64,000 nucleotides of DNA. Origin: Escherichia coli (lineage in GTDB: Bacteria > Pseudomonadota > Gammaproteobacteria > Enterobacterales > Enterobacteriaceae). The notes under the pieces were generated by a model that was not told where the DNA came from, did not search any database, and saw only the letters and a list, made by a program, of their open reading frames with translations. The stretch lies in NCBI RefSeq assembly GCF_009931435.1, contig NZ_CP043414.1; one strand, written 5' to 3'. Position 1 is the stretch's first letter, and each line of letters begins with the position of its first letter. Both the position numbers and the translations under genes were made by a program. This document shows, one piece after another, positions 31,750-64,000 of the stretch.

Positions 31750-32136
31750 ATGGCTTACAGCGAAAAAGTTATCGATCATTACGAGAATCCGCGTAACGTG
31801 GGTTCCTTCGACAACAACGACGAGAACGTGGGCAGTGGCATGGTGGGTGCACCGGCCTGTGGCGACGTGATGAAGTTGCAGATTAAAGTCAACGATGAAG
31901 GTATCATTGAAGACGCGCGTTTTAAAACTTACGGCTGCGGTTCCGCTATCGCTTCCAGCTCCCTGGTCACCGAATGGGTGAAAGGGAAGTCTCTCGACGA
32001 AGCACAGGCGATCAAAAACACCGATATTGCTGAAGAACTTGAACTGCCGCCGGTGAAAATTCACTGTTCTATTCTGGCAGAAGACGCGATCAAAGCCGCC
32101 ATTGCGGACTATAAAAGCAAACGTGAAGCAAAATAA
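31750..32136 (+). CDS. iscU: Fe-S cluster scaffold IscU
   Basis: 128 aa; conserved Cys residues and the LPPVK motif. Confidence 0.95.
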   Translation: MAYSEKVIDHYENPRNVGSFDNNDENVGSGMVGAPACGDVMKLQIKVNDEGIIEDARFKTYGCGSAIASSSLVTEWVKGKSLDEAQAIKNTDIAEELELPPVKIHCSILAEDAIKAAIADYKSKREAK

Positions 32137-54384: not shown

Positions 54385-55857
54385 ATGGTACCTGTGGTCG
54401 CGCTTGTCGGGCGCCCTAACGTAGGAAAATCCACGTTATTTAACCGTCTAACTCGCACCCGAGATGCGCTGGTTGCGGATTTCCCGGGTCTGACTCGTGA
54501 CCGTAAGTACGGTCGTGCGGAAATTGAAGGCCGCGAGTTTATCTGTATTGATACCGGCGGGATTGACGGAACAGAAGACGGTGTAGAAACCCGCATGGCG
54601 GAACAGTCGCTGCTGGCGATTGAAGAAGCGGACGTCGTACTGTTTATGGTGGATGCGCGCGCGGGCCTGATGCCTGCGGATGAAGCGATTGCTAAACATC
54701 TGCGCTCCCGCGAAAAACCGACCTTCCTGGTGGCAAACAAAACCGATGGTCTGGATCCGGATCAGGCCGTTGTTGATTTCTATTCGCTCGGTTTAGGTGA
54801 AATCTATCCTATCGCCGCGTCTCACGGTCGTGGCGTATTAAGTCTGCTGGAGCACGTGCTGTTGCCGTGGATGGAAGATATCGCACCACAAGAAGAAGTG
54901 GATGAAGACGCTGAATACTGGGCGCAATTTGAAGCAGAAGAAAACGGCGAAGAAGAAGAGGAAGATGACTTTGACCCGCAAAGTCTGCCAATCAAACTGG
55001 CGATAGTGGGTCGTCCTAACGTCGGTAAGTCGACACTCACTAACCGTATCCTTGGCGAAGAACGCGTCGTGGTTTACGACATGCCGGGCACTACGCGTGA
55101 CAGTATCTACATTCCAATGGAACGCGATGGGCGTGAGTATGTACTCATTGACACTGCGGGCGTACGTAAACGCGGCAAAATCACCGATGCGGTAGAGAAA
55201 TTCTCCGTAATCAAAACATTGCAGGCGATTGAAGATGCCAACGTGGTGATGTTGGTGATTGATGCTCGCGAGGGTATTTCCGATCAGGATCTCTCCTTAC
55301 TGGGCTTTATTCTCAATAGTGGGCGCTCACTTGTGATTGTAGTGAACAAGTGGGACGGCCTGAGCCAGGAAGTGAAAGAGCAAGTAAAAGAGACGCTGGA
55401 CTTCCGTCTGGGCTTTATCGACTTCGCCCGTGTGCATTTTATCTCTGCATTACACGGCAGCGGCGTTGGTAACCTGTTTGAGTCAGTACGTGAAGCGTAT
55501 GACAGCTCCACCCGTCGCGTGGGTACGTCAATGCTGACGCGTATCATGACCATGGCGGTTGAAGATCACCAGCCGCCGCTGGTTCGCGGGCGTCGTGTGA
55601 AGCTGAAATATGCCCACGCCGGGGGTTATAACCCGCCAATTGTGGTGATTCATGGCAACCAGGTGAAAGACCTGCCTGATTCCTATAAGCGTTATCTGAT
55701 GAACTACTTCCGCAAGTCTCTGGACGTGATGGGTACGCCGATTCGTATTCAGTTCAAAGAAGGGGAAAACCCATATGCGAACAAGCGTAACACCCTGACG
55801 CCGACCCAGATGCGCAAGCGTAAGCGTTTGATGAAGCATATTAAGAAAAGTAAGTAA
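54385..55857 (+). CDS. der: Ribosome-associated GTPase Der (EngA)
   Basis: 490 aa from [16 protein letters not shown]; two G domains (GRPNVGKST twice) separated by an acidic linker; the ORF track extends the frame to 54346. Confidence 0.95.
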
Positions 55858-55919
55858 TCACTTATCTGGTTTCCCTTTCCAAACGGAGAGGGAAACTGAA
55901 CAACAGGCGAGGAGTATTT

Positions 55920-56135
55920 ATGGAACTCAACTGCCCAACCTGCCATAACCCTCTCGAACGCAACGGTGAAACTGCCCACTGTGCAACTTGTGCCAAAGAT
56001 TTCACCATTCAGGCGCTTTGTCCTGACTGCCATCAGCCATTACAGGTGTTAAAAGCTTGTGGTGCAGTAGATTATTTCTGCCAGCATGGGCACGGTTTAA
56101 TATCCAAAAAGCGCGTTGAATTTATTGTTGCTTAA
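55920..56135 (+). CDS. yfgJ: Small Cys-rich zinc-ribbon-like protein
   Basis: 71 aa with CPTC ... CATC ... CPDC ... CQHGH motifs; K-12 synteny after der. Confidence 0.8.
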   Translation: MELNCPTCHNPLERNGETAHCATCAKDFTIQALCPDCHQPLQVLKACGAVDYFCQHGHGLISKKRVEFIVA

Positions 56136-56326
56136 TATTATTTAAATATATGGTGTAATCATTTGTATTCATAATATAAATGATTGCATCCTATTTTATT
56201 TGTTGAAACGCAAATGTAAGTGAGCGAAATCACTGTGTTATAAATTTAAGATTATATTTAGTTTTCCTGGCGTGCCTTTCTGAATAATCTGGAATAGAAT
56301 ATTAGAGCTAATTTTAAGCATTATTA
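56136..56326. other. AT-rich core/accessory junction and probable sinH promoter region
   Basis: About 190 bp markedly AT-rich compared with flanking coding DNA; lies where K-12 has the short yfgJ-xseA spacer. Confidence 0.5.
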
Positions 56327-58519
56327 ATGTCACAGGGGATGTGCATGCTGCGATGGAAACGCTGTATTATGCTAACATTTATCTCTGGAGCTGCTTTTGC
56401 GGCTCCAGAGATAAATGTTGAGCATAAAGAATCGTTACCTGATTTAGGTAGTCAGGCCGCACAACAGGAAGAGCAAACTAACAAGGGTAAATCGCTAAAA
56501 GAGCGTGGTGCCGATTACGTCATTAACTCTGCCACGCAAGGGTTTGAAAACCTCACACCCGAGGCGCTGGAGTCCCAGGCCAGAAGCTATCTGCAAAGTC
56601 AAATTACCTCTACGACACAATCTTATATTGAGGATACACTCTCCCCCTACGGTAAGGTCCGAACGAATCTTTCTCTTGGTCAGGGCGGCGATCTGGATGG
56701 CAGTTCCATCGACTATTTTGTTCCCTGGTATGATAATCAAACTACTGTTTATTTCAGCCAATTTTCTGCACAACGAAAAGAAGATCGTACGATCGGGAAT
56801 ATTGGGCTTGGTGTAAGACATAATTTTGATAGATGGTTATTGGGTGGAAATATATTTTATGATTATGATTTTACCCGTGGGCATCGCCGTTTAGGTTTAG
56901 GTGCCGAAGCCTGGACTGATTATTTAAAATTCTCTGGCAACTATTATCATCCGCTTTCTGACTGGAAAGACTCCGAAGATTTCGATTTTTATGAGGAGCG
57001 TCCTGCGCGCGGTTGGGATATTCGCGCCGAAGCCTGGCTACCTGCTTACCCGCAGCTTGGCGGTAAAATCGTTTTCGAACAGTATTACGGTGATGAAGTC
57101 GCGCTTTTTGGCACCGATAATCTGGAGAAAGATCCCTTCGCCGTCACGCTGGGTGTGAAATACCAGCCCGTACCGCTCATTGCCGTAGGAACGGATTTCA
57201 AAGCCGGCACTGGCGATAATACCGATCTTTCTGTTAACGCAACGCTGAACTACCAGTTTGGCGTCTCGCTCAAAGACCAGCTTGATCCTGACAAAGTAAG
57301 CGCGGCTCACTCGCTCATGGGCAGCCGTCACGACTTTGTTGAACGTAACAACTTTATTGTTCTGGAATACAAAGAGAAAGATCCCCTCGATGTCACTTTG
57401 TGGCTGAAAGCTGATGCGACGAATGAACATCCCGAGTGCGTGATTAAAGATACGCCAGAAGCAGCCATCGGGCTGGAAAAATGTAAGTGGACCATTAACG
57501 CGCTCATTAATCATCATTACAAAATCGTTGCTGCCTCCTGGCAGGCGAAAAACAATGCTGCACGTACGCTGGTGATGCCGGTTATCAAAGAAAATACGCT
57601 TACCGAAGGGAACAACAATCACTGGAATCTGGTGCTGCCTGCCTGGCAGTACAGCTCTGATAAAGCCGACCAGGAAAAACTCAATACCTGGCGGGTACGC
57701 CTGGCGCTGGAAGATGAAAAAGGCAATCGGCAGAACTCCGGCGTGGTGGAAATTACCGTTCAGCAGGACCGTAAAATTGAGCTCATTGTTAACAACATCG
57801 CCAATGTACCGGATGAGAACAATCACAGCCACGAAGCCAGCGCGCAAGCGGATGGTGTAGATGGTGTCGTCATGGATCTCGACGTTACCGATAGCTTTGG
57901 CGACAACACTGACCGTAACGGTAATGTCTTGCCGCAGGATAATCTCAGCCCGCAGCTGTTTGATGCCAACGATAAAAAAGTGACGCTGACGAATAAACCC
58001 TGCACCACCGAAGTGCCGTGCGTTTTTATCGTCAAACAAGATAAAGAAAAGGGGACCGTTACGCTCTCCAGTACGTTGCCCGGCACTTTCCGCTGGAAGG
58101 CGAAAGCCGCCCCTTATGATGACAGTAACTATGTTGACGTAACGTTCCTGGGTTCTGACATCGGCGGGCTGAATGCTTTTATCTACCGCGTTGGTGCAGC
58201 TAAGCCCGTCAATCTTATCGGCAACAAAGAACCGTTGCCTCTCAATAGCCGCTATCGCTTTGTGCTGTGGCGCGACGCTAACAAAGACGGCGTGTTCCAG
58301 CTTTCTGAGAAGCTCACTGACGATGAGATGAAACAGTATGACTATCAGTGGGAATTCACGGGGCATAGCGTAAATGGCAATACCGGTGCGCAAACCAATA
58401 CCACGAACGTCGATATAGAGATCCCGGCAACCAACAAGGAAGCGGCAGCAAAGTTTAGTGCCCAGGTAACCGATGGCGTGCAGGGATACGGTTTGCAGGT
58501 CAATTACAGCAAGAAATAG
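56327..58519 (+). CDS. sinH: Intimin/invasin-family outer membrane protein (inverse autotransporter)
   Basis: 730 aa; signal peptide ending AFA; beta-barrel-like segment with aromatic-rich strands (GWDIRAEAWLPAYPQLGGKIVFEQYYGDE); in-frame alternative starts at 56339 and 56345. Confidence 0.7.
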   Translation: MSQGMCMLRWKRCIMLTFISGAAFAAPEINVEHKESLPDLGSQAAQQEEQTNKGKSLKERGADYVINSATQGFENLTPEALESQARSYLQSQITSTTQSYIEDTLSPYGKVRTNLSLGQGGDLDGSSIDYFVPWYDNQTTVYFSQFSAQRKEDRTIGNIGLGVRHNFDRWLLGGNIFYDYDFTRGHRRLGLGAEAWTDYLKFSGNYYHPLSDWKDSEDFDFYEERPARGWDIRAEAWLPAYPQLGGKIVFEQYYGDEVALFGTDNLEKDPFAVTLGVKYQPVPLIAVGTDFKAGTGDNTDLSVNATLNYQFGVSLKDQLDPDKVSAAHSLMGSRHDFVERNNFIVLEYKEKDPLDVTLWLKADATNEHPECVIKDTPEAAIGLEKCKWTINALINHHYKIVAASWQAKNNAARTLVMPVIKENTLTEGNNNHWNLVLPAWQYSSDKADQEKLNTWRVRLALEDEKGNRQNSGVVEITVQQDRKIELIVNNIANVPDENNHSHEASAQADGVDGVVMDLDVTDSFGDNTDRNGNVLPQDNLSPQLFDANDKKVTLTNKPCTTEVPCVFIVKQDKEKGTVTLSSTLPGTFRWKAKAAPYDDSNYVDVTFLGSDIGGLNAFIYRVGAAKPVNLIGNKEPLPLNSRYRFVLWRDANKDGVFQLSEKLTDDEMKQYDYQWEFTGHSVNGNTGAQTNTTNVDIEIPATNKEAAAKFSAQVTDGVQGYGLQVNYSKK

Positions 58520-58574
58520 GGTCGGCGCCATGGCTGATCGGGCCACCGCTGAATATTAATCAAGGAGAGTGTTT

Positions 58575-59567
58575 ATGAAACCTGATATGAAACGTGGCCT
58601 GACAAAAGTCGCGCTCGCGTTGATGCTGGCTGGATACTGTGCCGTACCAGCCGCTATGGCGGAAGATGCCGCCTGGGTCGCCAGTGGAGCGACCGCTGAA
58701 TTCGAAGGGACTATACCCTGGCTCTATCGCGAAGGGGGGAATGCCACGATTAACTCGGAAGATGCGGATCACATTAAAGTGACGTCTGATGGTAAAGGGA
58801 CCCGCCCTGCAGGTAGCGAGACGGATAAACGCCTTTACTCAGGGGATACCATCACGCTGGGATGGGATATCGGCGATACCGAAGGGGATGTTGATGATGG
58901 TCCCGCAGGCATTGATGCGAAAACGACGGCCACTATCAAATGGTACAGCTACAGCAATAATGCGGGTGGCGATAAAACGGAGCTGACCGCAGCGGCAGGC
59001 AAGACGAGTTATAAACTCACTGATGACGATCGTGGGCGTTATATCGGTGTTGAAATCCAGCCCATCACCCAGACCGGTAATCCCTTCGAGGGAACGTCGC
59101 TGACTCTGCTGGATATTTCAACGGCCAGCGGTGGCGGCAGCGATACGGACAATGTCGATCCCGGCCCGGTTGTGAACCAGAATCTGAAAGTTGCCATCTT
59201 CGAGAAAGGCACCACTACCAACCTTATCGGTGGTAACACGGCCATTGCGCTTAATAAAACGTATGTGGCCAAACTGTACTCGGATGAAAACCAGAACGAT
59301 AAATACGACGCAGGTACGGATATGGACGTTACCGCTAACTATGACTTTGCATGGGTCTTTAACGGTAACAGTAAACAACTTGCTGCGGCGGGCGGTATTG
59401 CTAATGCCAGCTTCGATAACAATGACATTGTTATCCCGCAAACTAACGAAGAAGCAAGAACCAGCCTTAATGGTAGTGACCGTAATGGTAAGAGTGGTCT
59501 TGCGATCCCGGCAAACGGCGACGGCGTTCAGGGCTATACGCTGTCTATCATTTACAAACACCACTAA
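58575..59567 (+). CDS. sinI: Secreted protein of unknown function, SinI/SivI-like
   Basis: About 330 aa from the ATG at 58575 (AAGGAG RBS); signal peptide ending AMA; position between sinH and ratA. Confidence 0.65.
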   Translation: MKPDMKRGLTKVALALMLAGYCAVPAAMAEDAAWVASGATAEFEGTIPWLYREGGNATINSEDADHIKVTSDGKGTRPAGSETDKRLYSGDTITLGWDIGDTEGDVDDGPAGIDAKTTATIKWYSYSNNAGGDKTELTAAAGKTSYKLTDDDRGRYIGVEIQPITQTGNPFEGTSLTLLDISTASGGGSDTDNVDPGPVVNQNLKVAIFEKGTTTNLIGGNTAIALNKTYVAKLYSDENQNDKYDAGTDMDVTANYDFAWVFNGNSKQLAAAGGIANASFDNNDIVIPQTNEEARTSLNGSDRNGKSGLAIPANGDGVQGYTLSIIYKHH

Positions 59568-59574
59568 TGCGCAC

Positions 59575-59613
59575 AACAGCATTCCCATATGGGAATGCTG
59601 TTTTCCGCCTGTT
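59575..59613 (+). terminator. Hairpin terminator downstream of sinI
   Basis: 12-bp stem aacagcattccc / gggaatgctgtt with loop atat, followed by a T-rich tail. Confidence 0.6.
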
Positions 59614-59676
59614 TTGCTTAGCGACGCGTTAAGCAAAACAGGTTGATGTTTTGTTTATCATGCTGGAGTTTTCTAC

Positions 59677-62600
59677 ATGTCGGTATGTCTGAAACCAGGG
59701 AAAATCATTATGCTTCTGGGCATGTTGGCAGCTTTTATGCTGTCTGACTTTGCACGGGCAGGGGCGGAATGGCAGACATATCCTGATTCTACAGGCGAGT
59801 TTAACGGAACCGTTCCTTTTGCCGACAGCGCCAGCGTACCCGTCTATCAGGGCAGTGTTCAGCTTAATCCTGCTGAATCTCATGATGTCGGGTTTTCTGC
59901 TAAACCGAATGAATTTAGTGTTGACGATGACGCTGCTAACCTGATTGTTGCTAATCCTCAGGACAATGAAGGCGACCAGTTTTCCACACCACCTGCGCTG
60001 CGCTGGGAAAATCAAACACCCCCTACCGTCAGCCTGGTGTGGGCCGATGCCGCCACGCCCGATGTGCCCCTTAACCCACAACCCATTGCTAACCGTAGCT
60101 TTTGCGCTCAGGGGCTCGCCGGACGCTCGCTGGTGGCCTGGCCGCAGATTGATGCGCAGCAAACCCTCCCACTGCTCTACCTGCTGACCTCGACCGGGTA
60201 TCCCTATGCGGGGACGGTGGCGCTGGTGGACCAGAAAGTGACCCTGAACATCGCGCCCGCGCAGGGCGATTTAATCTCGGTGAGCGCCAGCGGTTATAAC
60301 GAAACGATCGCGGCGGCAAAAACCACCGTTGGCGACACCATCACGCTCACCGTCACCACTAAAGATTGTCAGGGCAACGTCGCGGGTAATATTCCGTTTA
60401 TTATCAAACGTAAAGATGCTGAAAATCGCCAGGGGGCAGTGAATAATAGTGCGCCAGTGGTACTGGATAGCACCGAGTTAACGACGACGGCTACCGAATA
60501 CCATGGCACCTCTGATTCCAACGGCACGGCCACCATCACGGTGAGCCAACCGAACGGCCCTGGTGTCAAAACGCCACTGGTGGTCAGCATTTCCGGCATT
60601 GCGCAAACCAGCGAAACCGCAGTGATTTTTACCGTACTCACCAGCCCGGACGTGGCGCAGGCTACGATGTGGGGCCATATGGCGGAGACGGTAGAAGCCC
60701 ACGGTTACACCTTCAGTCGACCAAAGCTGGCGGCAGAAGTCAGCAATGAAAGCGCCACGGTTGTCGATCATAACGAAACCTGGTCCACCTTCACCTGGAG
60801 CGGCGCAGATAGCCACTGCACCGTGCTGCCCGGCATGCGCCACTTCGGCGCGCTGGCGACCGTTATCCCCACGTCGGTGCAGACAGCCCTTGGCTGGCCG
60901 ATGCAGGGGGATTATTACTGGTCATCGCTGGCGGGCACCACCGGGCAGCACCATGCGGCGGATGTCTCTAACCGTAGTGAAACGCAAAAGCCGGATAGCA
61001 CCCCGTTTCTTGTGAGCTGCGTGGATAAACCCGCGCCTGATGTCGAACCGAAAATCGTCCTTACGCCCGAAAACTATGATGATACGGCACAGGCGATGAA
61101 ATCGCAGGTGGGCGAAGACGCCACGATGCGTCTGACGATCACCGACAATAAAAATAACGATCAACCACTGGCGTATTACTACTTCTCGCTGCATCTGGAT
61201 GACGGCGTTAACCGCAAAAATCAAACCGATTCCGCCTGGGAAGCCCATCCGGTGCAGATTACTGGTGGTTCGAATTTACAACAGGTTGATGCTCACACCT
61301 ATGAAGGCATGACCGATGTCAACGGTCAGGCTTCGCTAACCCTGAGTCAGCCCGACGGCGCAGGCGTGAAAACCCATATCACGGCGAAAATGCGCAGCAA
61401 TTTTACGGCTACAGATGCCAAAGACGTGATTTTTACTGTGATCACCAGCCCGGACAGCGACAAGGCGCGGATGTGGGGCCATATGCGCGGCATTGTTGTA
61501 TCTGGCAGTCTGTTCAAACGCCCAGTGCTGGCGGATGAAACTGAGCATGAACTGGGATCGGTGCGGGAAAATGACGAAGACTGGGCGCTGTTCGATCAAG
61601 ACACCAGTATGCAGGCTGAATGCGGCGTCGGCCATACGCCACGTCAGAGTGGGCTGGAAAGCCTGTTTTCAGCCCATCCCGGTAACGCGATTGGCACTGA
61701 GTATGGCTGGCCCACCGCCCAACAGAGCTACTTAAGCGCGGTGGAGCAAGCCACGCATTCATCGGTGAATCTGGGGAACGGAAACGTCGACAGCTACTCC
61801 GGCTTTAAGCAGAATTACCTCTCCTGTTCGGGCAATGAGATGGTAGCGAAGGTTGAAGTCAGCACCGATCACGATATCACCCCTGGCAGCAAAGCGCAGG
61901 CCAAAGTAGGTGACACCATCGTGATGACCGTGCGTACGATTAACGCGCTCAATAATACCCCGGTACCCTTTACTGCATTCACCATTACCAAAGGCATGGG
62001 GTATAACCGAGCGGGGCTGGTGAGCGGGTTTGATGACCCGAGCAGCGGCGCAATCTCGATGAATGGCACGCAATACGGCACATCACAGCCGTCGATGGTC
62101 TACACAGGTACGACAGATGCACAAGGCGTGGCAACGGTCGAAATAGAGCAACCCCAGGGGGTGGGGTTAAGAACCGTGCTGAGCATTACGCCGGTCAATT
62201 CCCATCTACCAAATGCCATTAATTACAATGTTATTTTTACCACCCCAACCAGCCCGGATGTTAGTGGGGCGCAGATGTGGGGCCATATGGATGAAACGAT
62301 TACCGTTGATTCATTAACCTTTACCCGGCCTAAGCTGGCAGCAGAAATCGCCAGTCCGGATGGCACACTAACGGAAAAAAACGAAGTCTGGGCGCGCGTT
62401 AGCCAGGCCAGTACGGCCATTACCAGTAAAGGCGGTTGCGGAACCAATATGCTGCCGCGCCGCTCCCAGCTCAGTGCGCTTTATGACGCTAATAACGGTA
62501 ATGCGGTGCAAGCCACACACGGCTGGCCGACGCAGCGTCAGCCCTACTGGAGCAGTTCCCCCGCGGATTTAACGCCGCACAATTACACCATTGCCCTGGA

Positions 62601-64000
62601 TAACGGCGCACAGGCCATCGGCGGCGATACGCCGGTTTACGTCAGTTGCCTGACGACGGCGAACAAACCTGCCAGCAGCATTACGCTGGATGTGGTTGAT
62701 AACGCACAGTGGGCTGCCGGAAATAACGCGGCGAAGCTGAAAAAAGGCGAAACGCTACGGGTTAAGGTAACGGTAAAAGATGCGCAGGGTAATCCGCTCA
62801 CGGATATGCCATTTAAACTGAGTCGCGGAGACGGTTATACCCGCACGGGCGAAAAACATATTGCCGGTAGTGGCGATGCGCTGGTGGCACCGGTGGTGAT
62901 TAACAGTGGGCTGGCGGATGAAACGACGTTGAACGACACCGCGGGATTTTATACTGCCATGACCGGTAGCGACGGCAGCAAAATCCTCAATATTACCCGC
63001 CCGGATACTCACGGCACCAAAACGGCGCTGACGGCGACGTTGTATTCCGATCCAACAAAAAAAGACAGCCTGGATACAATCTTTACTGTGGTCACCAGCC
63101 CGGATAGTAGCAAAGCGAAAATGTGGGGGCATATGCCGGAAACGGTGACGGCTGCGGACGGTACGGTATTTAAACGCCCGCTGTTGTTGAAGGAACTGGC
63201 CTATCAGACTGGGCGAACATCGACGTCTGAAGACAATGAAAACTGGGCGTTGTTTAACATTAATTATGCGAGTTCTTCCACGACGTATAGTGGCTGTGGA
63301 ACCAACTATATTCCGACTCAAGCCGGTCTGACGTCACTGTTTGCTAATAATGCGGGCAACACCATGAAAACCGTGCAGGGCTGGCCGGTGGCAACACGCT
63401 ATTTGTCCAACACGTCCGACAACGGCAGCATGGAGCAGCGTAACTACAAGGCGGTAGATCTCAGCAATGGCACGAGTGCGGCAGTGTCATCAACGGCGCT
63501 GCAACTGCTGACCTGCCAGACCACGCCGGTAACCACGGTGGGCCAAATTCTGCTGGAAGCGGCAGATCCGGCGACGCTGGATACCACCTATAACGTGGTA
63601 AAAGCGAAAAAAGGCGAAGAATCCGTGGTGCGCGTCACCACCAAAGATACGCAAGGCAACCTGGTGGGCAATACGGCATTTATCCTGACGCGTGCCAACA
63701 GCGTGAGTCGGGCTAACGCATCAGCAACCGCGAGCGTGGGCGCGCTGACGGTGACGGATGCTTGGGGAAATACGCGAAATAATTTCCAGTCGACGAGTGA
63801 AACGATTTACGGCGTGACTGGTGCAGACGGGTCAACGACATTTACCCTGAAACAGGATAACAGTACCGGGTTAAGAACCGATCTCACGGCAAAACTGGAT
63901 ACGTCCAGCAGCGTCAAGGCGACGCTACCGGTGGTCTTTACTGTCGTGACCAGCCCGGATTCGCCAAAAGCGAATTTTTGGGGACATATGGCCGAAACGG
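59677..64000 (+). CDS. ratA: Giant modular secreted/surface protein, RatA/RatB-like (5' partial; continues past window end)
   Basis: Single open frame with no stop from about 59677 to 64000 (at least 1441 codons), not in the ORF track because it has no in-window stop; signal peptide; repeated modules with the motif [VI][VI]FT..TSPD......WGHM. Confidence 0.75.
60500..64000 (+). repeat. Tandem protein-coding modules within ratA (period about 804-855 nt)
   Basis: Anchor motif starts at about 60622, 61426, 62230, 63076 and 63931, giving 268, 268, 282 and 285 aa spacing; flanking residues diverge, so the duplication is old. Confidence 0.65.

Follow-up and report, generated by a model that had tools for sequence, protein, structure and literature searches.

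The yfgJ–sinH spacer

The window, that is, the whole 64-kb stretch of DNA analysed, contains on its plus strand the gene yfgJ (55920–56135), which by its open reading frame and annotation encodes a double zinc-ribbon protein of 71 amino acids, followed by an AT-rich spacer (56136–56344, plus strand) and by sinH, also named iatB (56345–58519, plus strand), an intimin-like inverse autotransporter of 724 amino acids as annotated in RefSeq for the identical strain 2020CK-00188. The accessory sinH-sinI-adhesin segment ('ila'/CS54-like; 56136–64000, plus strand), which is absent from K-12, begins with the spacer and continues past the end of the window. Among ExPEC vaccine antigens SinH is a leading one; it is also a factor in colonisation by Salmonella and by uropathogenic E. 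coli, and it is cryptic in culture.

The spacer starts at the base following the yfgJ stop codon (TAA, 56133–56135) and spans 209 bp with 27.8% GC, against 52.3% for the whole window. Its 72.2% A+T overlaps the predicted sinH promoter, and the AT-rich tract already includes the last ~20 nt of yfgJ. No other stretch of the 64 kb is as low in GC: among the 63,792 sliding windows of 209 bp (mean 0.523, sd 0.047) 48 are equally AT-rich, all of them at the spacer locus, and in the 48-kb locus, with its 21 intergenic regions of 50 bp or longer, the spacer again ranks lowest, the next being at 30.6%. An earlier reading, made from the sequence alone (the sequence-only reading), had described an AT-rich tract between yfgJ and sinH at 56136–56345. 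The tract is confirmed as the 64-kb minimum and its coordinates are correct to within one base; both AT-rich strings quoted from it are found, at 56135–56151 and 56172–56188. Its length had been given as ~190 bp and is actually 209, the shorter value fitting only an in-frame ATG at 56327 that is not conserved.

Of the 5426 complete E. coli genomes, 1737 carry the spacer, always as a single chromosomal copy that no annotated feature overlaps, and the allele of the window is rare (at least 99% identity in 15 of the 5426). The finding of an AT-rich spacer is real, largely ordinary and in outline already known: the limits of the island (ila/CS54, xseA..yfgJ) and the silent, LeuO-inducible behaviour of its promoter are published and hold no surprise for specialists.

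A hairpin downstream of yfgJ

A terminator-like hairpin of 18 pairs with a 3-nt loop (56152–56190, plus strand; arms 56152–56169 and 56173–56190) begins 17 nt past the yfgJ stop codon, on the same strand. Its stem is unusually long and AT-rich, with G-C pairs at 3 of the 18 positions, and is worth −17.7 kcal/mol on its own. The minimum free energy of the region 56126–56215 is −23.6 kcal/mol (z = −5.2), and none of 200 shuffled sequences was equally stable. The 3' side of the hairpin abuts a T-rich tail, CTATTTTATTTGT (56191–56203, plus strand), in which T occupies seven of the first ten nucleotides (CTATTTTATT). Hairpins of differing sequence are found at the equivalent site in most orthologous loci (z < −2.3 in 11 of 18), with tails weaker than that of the window, containing 3–6 T in most alleles and no T-run in some.

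The arrangement resembles Rho-independent terminators in its stable hairpin, in the T-run placed directly after it and in the position shortly past a same-strand stop codon, and departs from them in the length and AT-richness of the stem and in the mostly poor T-runs of the orthologues. This hairpin is probably the terminator or the 3'-end hairpin of the der-yfgJ transcript, although termination itself is uncertain because of the three G-C pairs and the weak T-run in most orthologues. In such a role, hairpin and T-run would end or stabilise the der-yfgJ transcript and shield sinH from read-through. The whole tract had been assigned by the sequence-only reading to the probable promoter region of sinH. 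This stands for the part holding the conserved −10, which is the best sigma-70 PWM match, whereas the first ~65 bp are better read as the yfgJ hairpin or terminator.

Conserved predicted promoter elements and start of sinH

A closer look at the alignment of 16 spacers shows that the mean column identity is just 54% and that the invariant columns gather in four places: an element here called Block 1, the −10 hexamer, the Shine-Dalgarno sequence and the start codon. The predicted −10 hexamer is TAGAAT (56295–56300, plus strand; TAnAAT across genera), placed by conservation and by the PWM. In the alignment A4 and T6 never vary and T1 hardly does; the orthologues have TACAAT, TATAAT or TAAAAT there. 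A 17-bp spacer separates it from a weak −35 hexamer, GTGCCT (56272–56277, plus strand), which matches TTGACA at three of six positions and sits within the block best conserved among the E. coli alleles. The pair GTGCCT/TAGAAT is the top plus-strand match to the sigma-70 PWM (score 9.2), and the predicted promoter thereby has both the −10 of the form TAnAAT and the −35 at 16–18 bp expected for sigma-70. Transcription from this promoter, with its good −10 and poor −35, would start near 56307 (56306–56308, plus strand, from the usual distance of 6–8 nt past the −10), leaving a 5' untranslated leader of ~38 nt. The leader would carry the Shine-Dalgarno region CACAGGGGATGTG (56331–56343, plus strand), with GGGGA at 56335–56339, 5 nt ahead of the start codon. 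Most orthologues keep the consensus (C)ACAGGGA, in which G231 and G232 are nearly invariant. The ATG at 56345 is the RefSeq start of sinH, and in every orthologue it lines up with the start codon and a conserved AGGGA Shine-Dalgarno sequence.

Block 1, TTTAAGATTATATTTAG, is an element of 17 bp (56245–56261, plus strand) defined by conserved columns, with the cross-genus consensus TTTAGGAATATATTTAG. It contains two copies of TTTAG 12 bp apart, lies at about −62 to −46 relative to the predicted start and holds six invariant or near-invariant columns of the spacer alignment. In 16 of the 17 yfgJ–sinH spacers it matches the consensus at 14–17 of 17 positions (15 in the window), the remaining one being that of strain SMS-3-5, with 11. 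It is unique within the window at up to three mismatches. Its distance to the −10 is 33–34 nt at 15 of the 17 loci, the exceptions being Superficieibacter 1612_C1 (22 nt) and Escherichia sp. MOD1 (ambiguous, 22 or 42 nt). This conservation suggests that Block 1, held at a constant spacing from the −10, may be a site for an activator or may resemble an UP element in function.

By eye, Block 1 was compared with the motifs of PhoP, CpxR, RcsAB, Lrp, SlyA and Fis and with the UP element; the matches are partial (10–11 of 14 positions for the RcsAB box, 7 of 7 for the core of the distal UP subsite) and do not justify an assignment. A sigma-54 reading of CTGGCGTGCC..., also made by eye, was dropped because the GG-N10-GC spacing is not respected. 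A wider regulon was sought by scanning metagenomes for Block 1 followed by N33–34 and TAnAAT, which gave at least 120 matches. Among the matches listed, ~106 were chance matches in contigs of 12–41% GC, and the 14 contigs of at least 42% GC comprised 12 yfgJ–sinH loci and two of one unrelated locus, so that the scan yields no evidence for other Block 1 targets.

Probable silencing and activation of the sinH promoter

SMS-3-5 is the sole strain with experimental data. Its locus has the same order (yfgJ, a 209-bp spacer, sinH, sinI and the gene for a large adhesin, ending at xseA), and the two spacers can be aligned over their full length, sharing the −10 region and the Shine-Dalgarno sequence. 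Despite their equal length they are only 74% identical, and Block 1, well preserved in the window (15/17), is degenerate in SMS-3-5 (11/17). In that strain the iatB (= sinH) promoter fused to lacZ was silent in LB and M9 at 28–42 °C, and a screen of ~30,000 Tn5 mutants returned 12 up-mutants, of which all 12 were leuO-activating, with no hns insertion reported (Goh et al. 2019, mSphere, PMC6714894). Overexpression of LeuO raised iatB mRNA ~15-fold without detectable protein; the start site, operator and hairpin of iatB were not mapped in that study (PMC6714894). The silenced state that the sequence-only reading had proposed for the sinH promoter agrees with the behaviour of this orthologous promoter, silent in culture and inducible by LeuO.

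We favour an explanation in which the spacer is a long-conserved cis-regulatory region, in four parts, of the sinH-sinI(-adhesin) genes, and we put the probability of the whole explanation, taken jointly, at about 60%. An intrinsically weak promoter lying in 72% A+T DNA would be kept off in culture by H-NS-type nucleoid proteins and would be opened by LeuO, whose action on the orthologous promoter has been published. Both the published silence and the LeuO induction fit H-NS silencing, and H-NS binding follows AT content genome-wide in Salmonella (PMC1550270). Once the promoter, the upstream element and the structured leader are located, sinH could be switched on, its signals tested and the in vivo expression of a vaccine target judged.

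LeuO is best known as an H-NS antagonist, or counter-silencer, and antagonism between LeuO and H-NS has reportedly been described at silent loci (Shimada et al. 2011). Of the other inverse-autotransporter genes, fdeC is reportedly H-NS-regulated (Easton et al. 2014) and yeeJ of E. coli is said to be H-NS-repressed. These systems are like sinH in being adhesin genes of the same family, cryptic in culture and AT-rich upstream, with LeuO as counter-silencer. They differ in that the sinH genes are not AT-rich, and in that no H-NS binding or hns-mutant phenotype was found for sinH in the literature searched. Within it, the text of Lucchini et al. 2006 makes no mention of the sinH locus, and STM2517 appears in a ChIP study only as an intragenic sigma-54 site.

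Of the hallmarks of xenogeneic silencing, the AT-rich tract over the promoter is present here and a foreign composition of the controlled DNA is not: sinH has 48.6% GC, sinI 52.0% and the adhesin gene 55.0%, unlike the classic targets. Any H-NS patch would therefore be confined to ~0.2–0.9 kb. The high-affinity H-NS motif TCGATAAATT (tCGATAAATT) has no match at up to two mismatches in 56136–56344; over the whole window it has 67 matches against 56.6 expected, a count that is not informative. H-NS binding does not require this motif.

The promoter could also be a weak, activator-dependent one without H-NS silencing, off through its poor −35 and activated directly by LeuO or by a factor acting at Block 1, a possibility that we regard as rather unlikely and nevertheless as deserving weight. 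LeuO could indeed be a direct activator here, and the AT-richness would in that case reflect the terminator hairpin, the UP-like sequence and the melting region packed into 209 bp. Such a promoter would agree with a −35 matching at only three of six positions, with the constant spacing between the −10 and a sequence-specific Block 1, typical of activator and UP sites, and with a mutant screen that gave leuO-activating insertions and none reported in hns. The lack of the high-affinity H-NS motif in the spacer and the ordinary composition of the downstream genes point the same way. Against this, 72% A+T over 209 bp far exceeds the A+T content of the other 20 intergenic regions, and H-NS binding follows AT content. 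The reputation of LeuO as an H-NS antagonist and the H-NS regulation reported for the related gene fdeC likewise argue for silencing.

Conservation of the locus and limits of the segment

Homologous spacers of 186–218 bp and 22–31% GC are found at 16 loci in four genera (Escherichia, Citrobacter, Pseudocitrobacter and Superficieibacter), and yfgJ and sinH are also adjacent, by annotation, in Salmonella (PMC10048834). Since the AT-rich spacer and the adjacency are conserved over at least four genera, the spacer is an old regulatory region and not foreign junction DNA. The segment reaches the xseA stop codon and measures 11,681 bp in the identical strain 2020CK-00188, with an ordinary 52.9% GC; its right junction falls beyond the window. 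It has been published as the GR17 xseA..yfgJ or ila cluster (PMC12928451) and is called a horizontally acquired island in the literature (PMC12525524). Salmonella CS54 and the E. coli 'ila'/GR17 form share the chromosomal slot, the gene order and the orientation beside yfgJ (PMC10048834, PMC12928451, PMC12525524), the Salmonella form having ~25 kb and the E. coli form three genes in 11.7 kb.

Presence/absence polymorphism within E. coli is confirmed, with the segment in 1689–1737 of the 5426 complete genomes and a K-12-type yfgJ 5' end in 3667. The AT-rich sequence has no counterpart between yfgJ and xseA of K-12, because the two genes overlap there by 4 bp (TTAA). The spacer is the left edge of this polymorphism, and not an insertion scar, because the whole segment from the yfgJ stop to the xseA stop is missing in K-12-like strains. 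As the left boundary proposed by the sequence-only reading, it holds for the K-12 presence/absence breakpoint, which lies at the yfgJ stop codon, but not for the divergence from K-12, which begins upstream of 56136. Identity to K-12 is ~45–55% over 55850–56010 and 85–88% over 56020–56135, the hyperdivergent block consisting of the der–yfgJ spacer (55858–55919) and the 5' half of yfgJ (55920 to ~56018) and being linked to the presence of sinH. Accordingly, YfgJ is 36% identical to its K-12 counterpart in the N-terminal half and 95% in the C-terminal half. The last ~20 codons of xseA also diverge from K-12. This pattern fits two old haplotypes better than a recent insertion.

It is improbable, and by these comparisons already largely refuted, that the AT-rich stretch is foreign DNA from a horizontally acquired island and marks its integration junction, even though K-12 and roughly two thirds of the complete E. 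coli genomes lack the segment and the term island is the one used in the literature (PMC12525524). In at least four genera yfgJ is followed by this AT-rich spacer with hardly any change in length, the GC content of the island equals that of the chromosome, and the divergence from K-12 extends into the yfgJ 5' half and the end of xseA. The annotated island (sinH, sinI and the adhesin gene only) contains no integrase, tRNA or mobility gene, and plasmids carry none of the 1737 spacer copies. No repeat of 8 bp or more, direct or inverted, is common to both island junctions, in keeping with the absence of an att-like duplication noted earlier. The description of the tract as typical of horizontally acquired promoters fails on the composition of the controlled segment (52.9% GC against 51.5% for the locus) and on the conservation across genera. 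The comparison corrects the usual description of the locus: its behaviour is that of an old module, conserved by vertical descent and lost from many E. coli, rather than that of an AT-rich island of recent acquisition. That the spacer encodes a small RNA or small protein of its own is extremely improbable, as the minus-strand ORFs of 24 and 31 amino acids are conserved in no other allele (frame, length and sequence differ in each of those examined), the several promoter-like matches on the two strands are no more than AT-rich DNA gives by chance (1 found against 1.8 expected), and no Rfam match has E < 0.1 or lies inside the spacer.

A long mRNA hairpin in the signal-peptide codons

Downstream of the start codon, the signal-peptide codons of sinH contain a long hairpin at the mRNA level (56367–56427, plus strand; core arms 56374–56394 and 56399–56419), detected as an inverted repeat (I2) of 21 nt with 95% complementarity. 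The region 56301–56440 folds with −57.4 kcal/mol (z = −7.0). The hairpin persists in all Escherichia alleles through compensatory and wobble changes; one allele has matching 3-nt deletions in both arms. Pairing is found in 76% of cells, against 36–45% in slid controls, and the covariation score is 0.245, against at most 0.123; one of 500 shuffles reaches it. The Rfam scan of 55500–57000 (E ≤ 1) gave four weak chance matches, all on this hairpin and none in the spacer.

This conservation suggests that the hairpin may constitute a second, post-transcriptional layer of control. A full block of translation is contradicted, since cloned iatB (pIatB) produced protein at 144-fold mRNA (PMC6714894). 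Tentatively, and from sequence features, the locus may form a multi-layer module, in which the 17-bp operator-like element would be combined with the 28-bp signal-peptide hairpin, which could be an RNase III site or a modulator of translation or mRNA stability. More speculatively, the module would include CsrA-type GGA sites, proposed at the Shine-Dalgarno hairpin (56331–56343) and at an invariant TGGA at +10 (56354–56357). If this were true, post-transcriptional gating might contribute to the appearance of LeuO-induced iatB mRNA without detectable protein.

Composition and extent of the yfgJ-sinH spacer

The AT-rich stretch between yfgJ and sinH is an ordinary, essentially known regulatory region, and its reading as a conserved regulatory spacer with a silenced promoter is favored at a probability of about 0.6. 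The genes der (ending at 55857), yfgJ (55920–56135), sinH (56345–58519), sinI (3′ of sinH) and an 8-kb adhesin gene, which lies 3′ of sinI and continues past the window end, are all placed on the plus strand by open reading frames and annotation. The start codon of sinH was assigned to the ATG at 56345, which aligns with the start codon and the conserved (C)ACAGGGA Shine-Dalgarno sequence in all orthologues; the in-frame ATG at 56327 was rejected, since only 56345 matches both. Therefore, the spacer comprises 209 bp (56136–56344).

Its GC content is 27.8%, versus 52.3% for the window; among the 21 intergenic regions that reach 50 bp in the 48 kb around it, this is the lowest value (next lowest 30.6%). 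Equally AT-rich 209-bp sliding windows were seen at 48 of 63,792 positions, every one at the yfgJ-sinH locus. These values bear out the strong AT-richness described in the sequence-only reading, and both AT-rich strings that it quoted were found in the window. The window is E. coli chromosomal DNA and shows 3 differences from strain 2020CK-00188 over 28,001 aligned bases.

Breakpoint and haplotypes with respect to K-12

In the K-12 genome compared (MG1655) the convergent genes yfgJ and xseA overlap by 4 bp (TTAA), leaving no yfgJ-xseA spacer in which the AT-rich sequence could lie. The alignment of the window with K-12 diverges one base past the yfgJ stop codon, and this presence/absence breakpoint at 56136/56137 places the left boundary of the accessory segment (the sinH-sinI-adhesin island) at the spacer, as had been proposed. 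The segment missing in K-12 measures 11,681 bp in 2020CK-00188, where it reaches the xseA stop codon, its end lying outside the window. No direct or inverted repeats of at least 8 bp common to both island junctions were found, in agreement with the earlier remark that no attachment-like duplication was apparent.

Divergence from K-12 extends beyond the island. Identity is ~90–95% in der, ~45–55% between the der stop codon (55850) and the middle of yfgJ (~56010), and back up to 85–88% in the 3′ half of yfgJ; at the protein level, YfgJ shares 36% identity with K-12 over its N-terminal zinc ribbon and 95% over its C-terminal half. The sinH+ haplotype (ending ...RLGDGVVISEVSAVTKIRKPRKKT before the stop) and K-12 also differ strongly, with homology retained, in the final ~20 codons of xseA, which lie outside the window (31818–31880 in the compared locus L005). 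Of the 5426 complete E. coli genomes, 3667 have the K-12-type yfgJ 5′ end and 1689–1737 the sinH-type junction, together almost the whole set. Judged from these comparisons, the two types look like two old haplotypes and not one recent insertion.

The hyperdivergent block itself (55858–56018) consists of the der-yfgJ spacer and the yfgJ N-terminal zinc ribbon, with ~50% nucleotide and 36% amino acid identity to K-12; the window's type is common to all sinH-linked Escherichia and the K-12 type (3667 genomes) is the outlier. Between der and yfgJ there is a 12-bp hairpin (55869–55896, arms GTTTCCCTTTCC/GGAGAGGGAAAC), and at the same place K-12 has an apparent inverted repeat of different sequence (GCCATTCCCTCTA...TAGAGGGAATGGC), spotted by eye in the alignment. 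The flanking housekeeping genes hisS-der and xseA-guaA (L005 15742–20137 and 31878–36417) are ~93.5% identical to K-12 by BLAST, and bamB-der has a mean identity of 95% when measured by 60-nt sliding window. A close copy of the window's spacer allele is found in 15–18 of the 5426 complete E. coli genomes, and the source of the window appears to be a divergent Escherichia lineage.

Conservation of the spacer across genera

When species-representative genomes were searched with the SinH N-terminus, loci came up in several Escherichia species, Citrobacter, Pseudocitrobacter and Superficieibacter, 18 of them with yfgJ directly upstream of sinH. The 16 loci with assignable ends of both genes have spacers of 186–218 bp and 22–31% GC, in loci of 43–53% GC, and the Salmonella annotation shows the same gene order, ...sinI-sinH-yfgJ-der (PMC10048834). 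The island has a GC content of 52.9% (sinH 48.6%, sinI 52.0%, adhesin 55.0%), no mobility genes are annotated in it, and no plasmid carries any of the 1737 copies found in complete E. coli genomes. Thus, the AT-richness is a trait conserved in a regulatory spacer and not the footprint of a recent transfer, and the proposal of a horizontally acquired junction is not supported. As to whether the spacer is foreign DNA, the evidence from these sequences says no.

Proteins 93% and 99% identical to the window's SinH are encoded on a 2-kb contig of a 'Collinsella sp.' MAG and a 426-bp contig of a 'Rhizobium wenxiniae' assembly, respectively (entries L006/L025), both almost certainly Escherichia contamination. 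Two natural knock-outs were also seen. Strain Z0117EC0005 (L001 20496–23848) has an identical spacer and an internal deletion fusing sinH to the big adhesin gene, both annotated as pseudogenes; in E06 (L003 3204–4398) the IS5-family element ISKpn26 stands in place of the entire spacer and of the adjoining ends of yfgJ (3′) and sinH (5′).

Promoter and conserved upstream element

In an alignment of 16 spacer sequences (mean column identity 54%) the invariant and near-invariant columns concentrate in two blocks and the Shine-Dalgarno sequence. Block 1 (56245–56261, plus strand; TTTAAGATTATATTTAG, cross-genus consensus TTTAGGAATATATTTAG) is unique in the window; 16 of the 17 spacers match it at 14–17 of its 17 positions. 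The second block, TAGAAT (56295–56300, plus strand), reads TACAAT, TATAAT or TAAAAT in orthologues and lies 33–34 nt from Block 1 in 15 of 17 loci; one of the other two has 22 nt, shorter by one helical turn, and the second can be read as either 22 or 42 nt. In a separate scan with a sigma-70 PWM, GTGCCT-17-TAGAAT came out as the top plus-strand promoter in 56101–56360. From this, transcription is predicted to begin around 56307, with a leader of ~38 nt; the -35 is weak, and Block 1 would span roughly -62 to -46. This coincidence of the conserved -10 block with the best match supports the earlier assignment of the spacer as a promoter region. No small ORF was conserved among the alleles compared, and the spacer gave no Rfam match.

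The Shine-Dalgarno region (56331–56343) could fold into a small hairpin, CACA-GGGGA-TGTG, with the Shine-Dalgarno sequence in its loop. At +10 the TGGA (56354–56357) is invariant in 14 orthologues, although the residue following Trp differs (K/T/I/M, with codons that all begin with A). The GGA motifs at these two places, ~18 nt apart, resemble CsrA binding sites, a speculative likeness. The sequence at 56228–56240 (AATCACTGTGTTA) has one mismatch to the IHF consensus WATCAANNNNTTR and as a candidate IHF site is a weak lead; its AAATCAC is kept among Escherichia alleles only.

Probable silencing of the promoter

The cluster has been published as the ila locus or GR17 'xseA..yfgJ' in ExPEC (PMC12525524, PMC12928451) and as part of CS54 in Salmonella (PMC10048834), and a silent, LeuO-inducible promoter of the locus is also published (PMC6714894); the finding as stated was therefore already known. 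The present analysis contributes the precise breakpoint, the conservation between genera, the probable -10 and -35, the fixed-distance upstream element and the yfgJ hairpin.

In E. coli SMS-3-5, where the sinH orthologue is named iatB, a chromosomal iatB promoter-lacZ fusion was silent, the 12 up-mutants among ~30,000 Tn5 mutants were all insertions driving leuO, LeuO overexpression raised iatB mRNA ~15-fold, and no IatB protein could be detected in LB or M9 at 28–42 °C (PMC6714894). The silence proposed from sequence is documented for the fusion of this orthologue. The SMS-3-5 spacer has 209 bp and is 74% identical to that of the window. Its Block 1 is degenerate (AATAATGATATATTTAT; SMS-3-5 locus L028, 19358–19566, reverse strand), with 11 of 17 matches versus 15 of 17 in the window, and the SMS-3-5 results may underestimate the inducibility of the promoter elsewhere.

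LeuO is best known as an antagonist of H-NS. Because of this, and because H-NS occupancy follows AT content (PMC1550270), the silenced-promoter reading is reasonable; both points weigh against the live rival, a simply weak, activator-dependent promoter. On the side of this rival, the spacer (56136–56344) contains no match, at up to 2 mismatches, to the published high-affinity H-NS motif, no hns insertion was reported in the Tn5 screen (PMC6714894), and the downstream genes sinH, sinI and adhesin are not AT-rich. For these same reasons silencing by H-NS is unproven, and H-NS is a putative silencer at about even odds.

Hairpins in sinH and after yfgJ

A near-perfect 28-bp mRNA hairpin (56367–56427, plus strand; core arms 56374–56394 and 56399–56419) lies 22 nt into sinH, in the signal-peptide codons. 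The 21-nt core arms are 95% complementary, and the region 56301–56440 folds at -57.4 kcal/mol (z = -7.0). The hairpin is kept in all Escherichia alleles (z -3.9 to -9.7), and its ~13-bp core is present also in Citrobacter and Pseudocitrobacter. Double compensatory changes occur, for instance between the window (ACATTTATC/GATAAATGT) and E. albertii (ACGCTTATC/GATAAGCGT), paired third-codon positions covary, many pairs are G-U, which on the antisense strand would become A-C mismatches, and one metagenomic allele carries matching 3-nt deletions in both arms. In a 14-sequence alignment 76% of cells are paired versus 36–45% in slid controls, and the covariation score is 0.245 (reached by 1 of 500 shuffles) versus at most 0.123. 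Goh et al. 2019 (PMC6714894) make no mention of this hairpin, which could act in mRNA stability, as an RNase III site or in translation modulation. An intrinsic terminator was ruled out, as no U-run follows it, and so was an absolute translation block, since the cloned gene made protein (PMC6714894).

Another hairpin, of 18 bp with a 3-nt loop, is placed 17 nt past the yfgJ stop codon (56152–56190, plus strand), is followed by CTATTTTATT and was detected as terminator-like. Its stem by itself gives -17.7 kcal/mol, and none of 200 shuffled sequences was as stable (z = -5.2). Orthologues have hairpins of different sequence at the equivalent position (z < -2.3 in 11 of 18); their T-runs are often poor, and the stem in the window contains only 3 G-C pairs. 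With moderate confidence, this element is the terminator or 3′-end hairpin of the der-yfgJ transcript.
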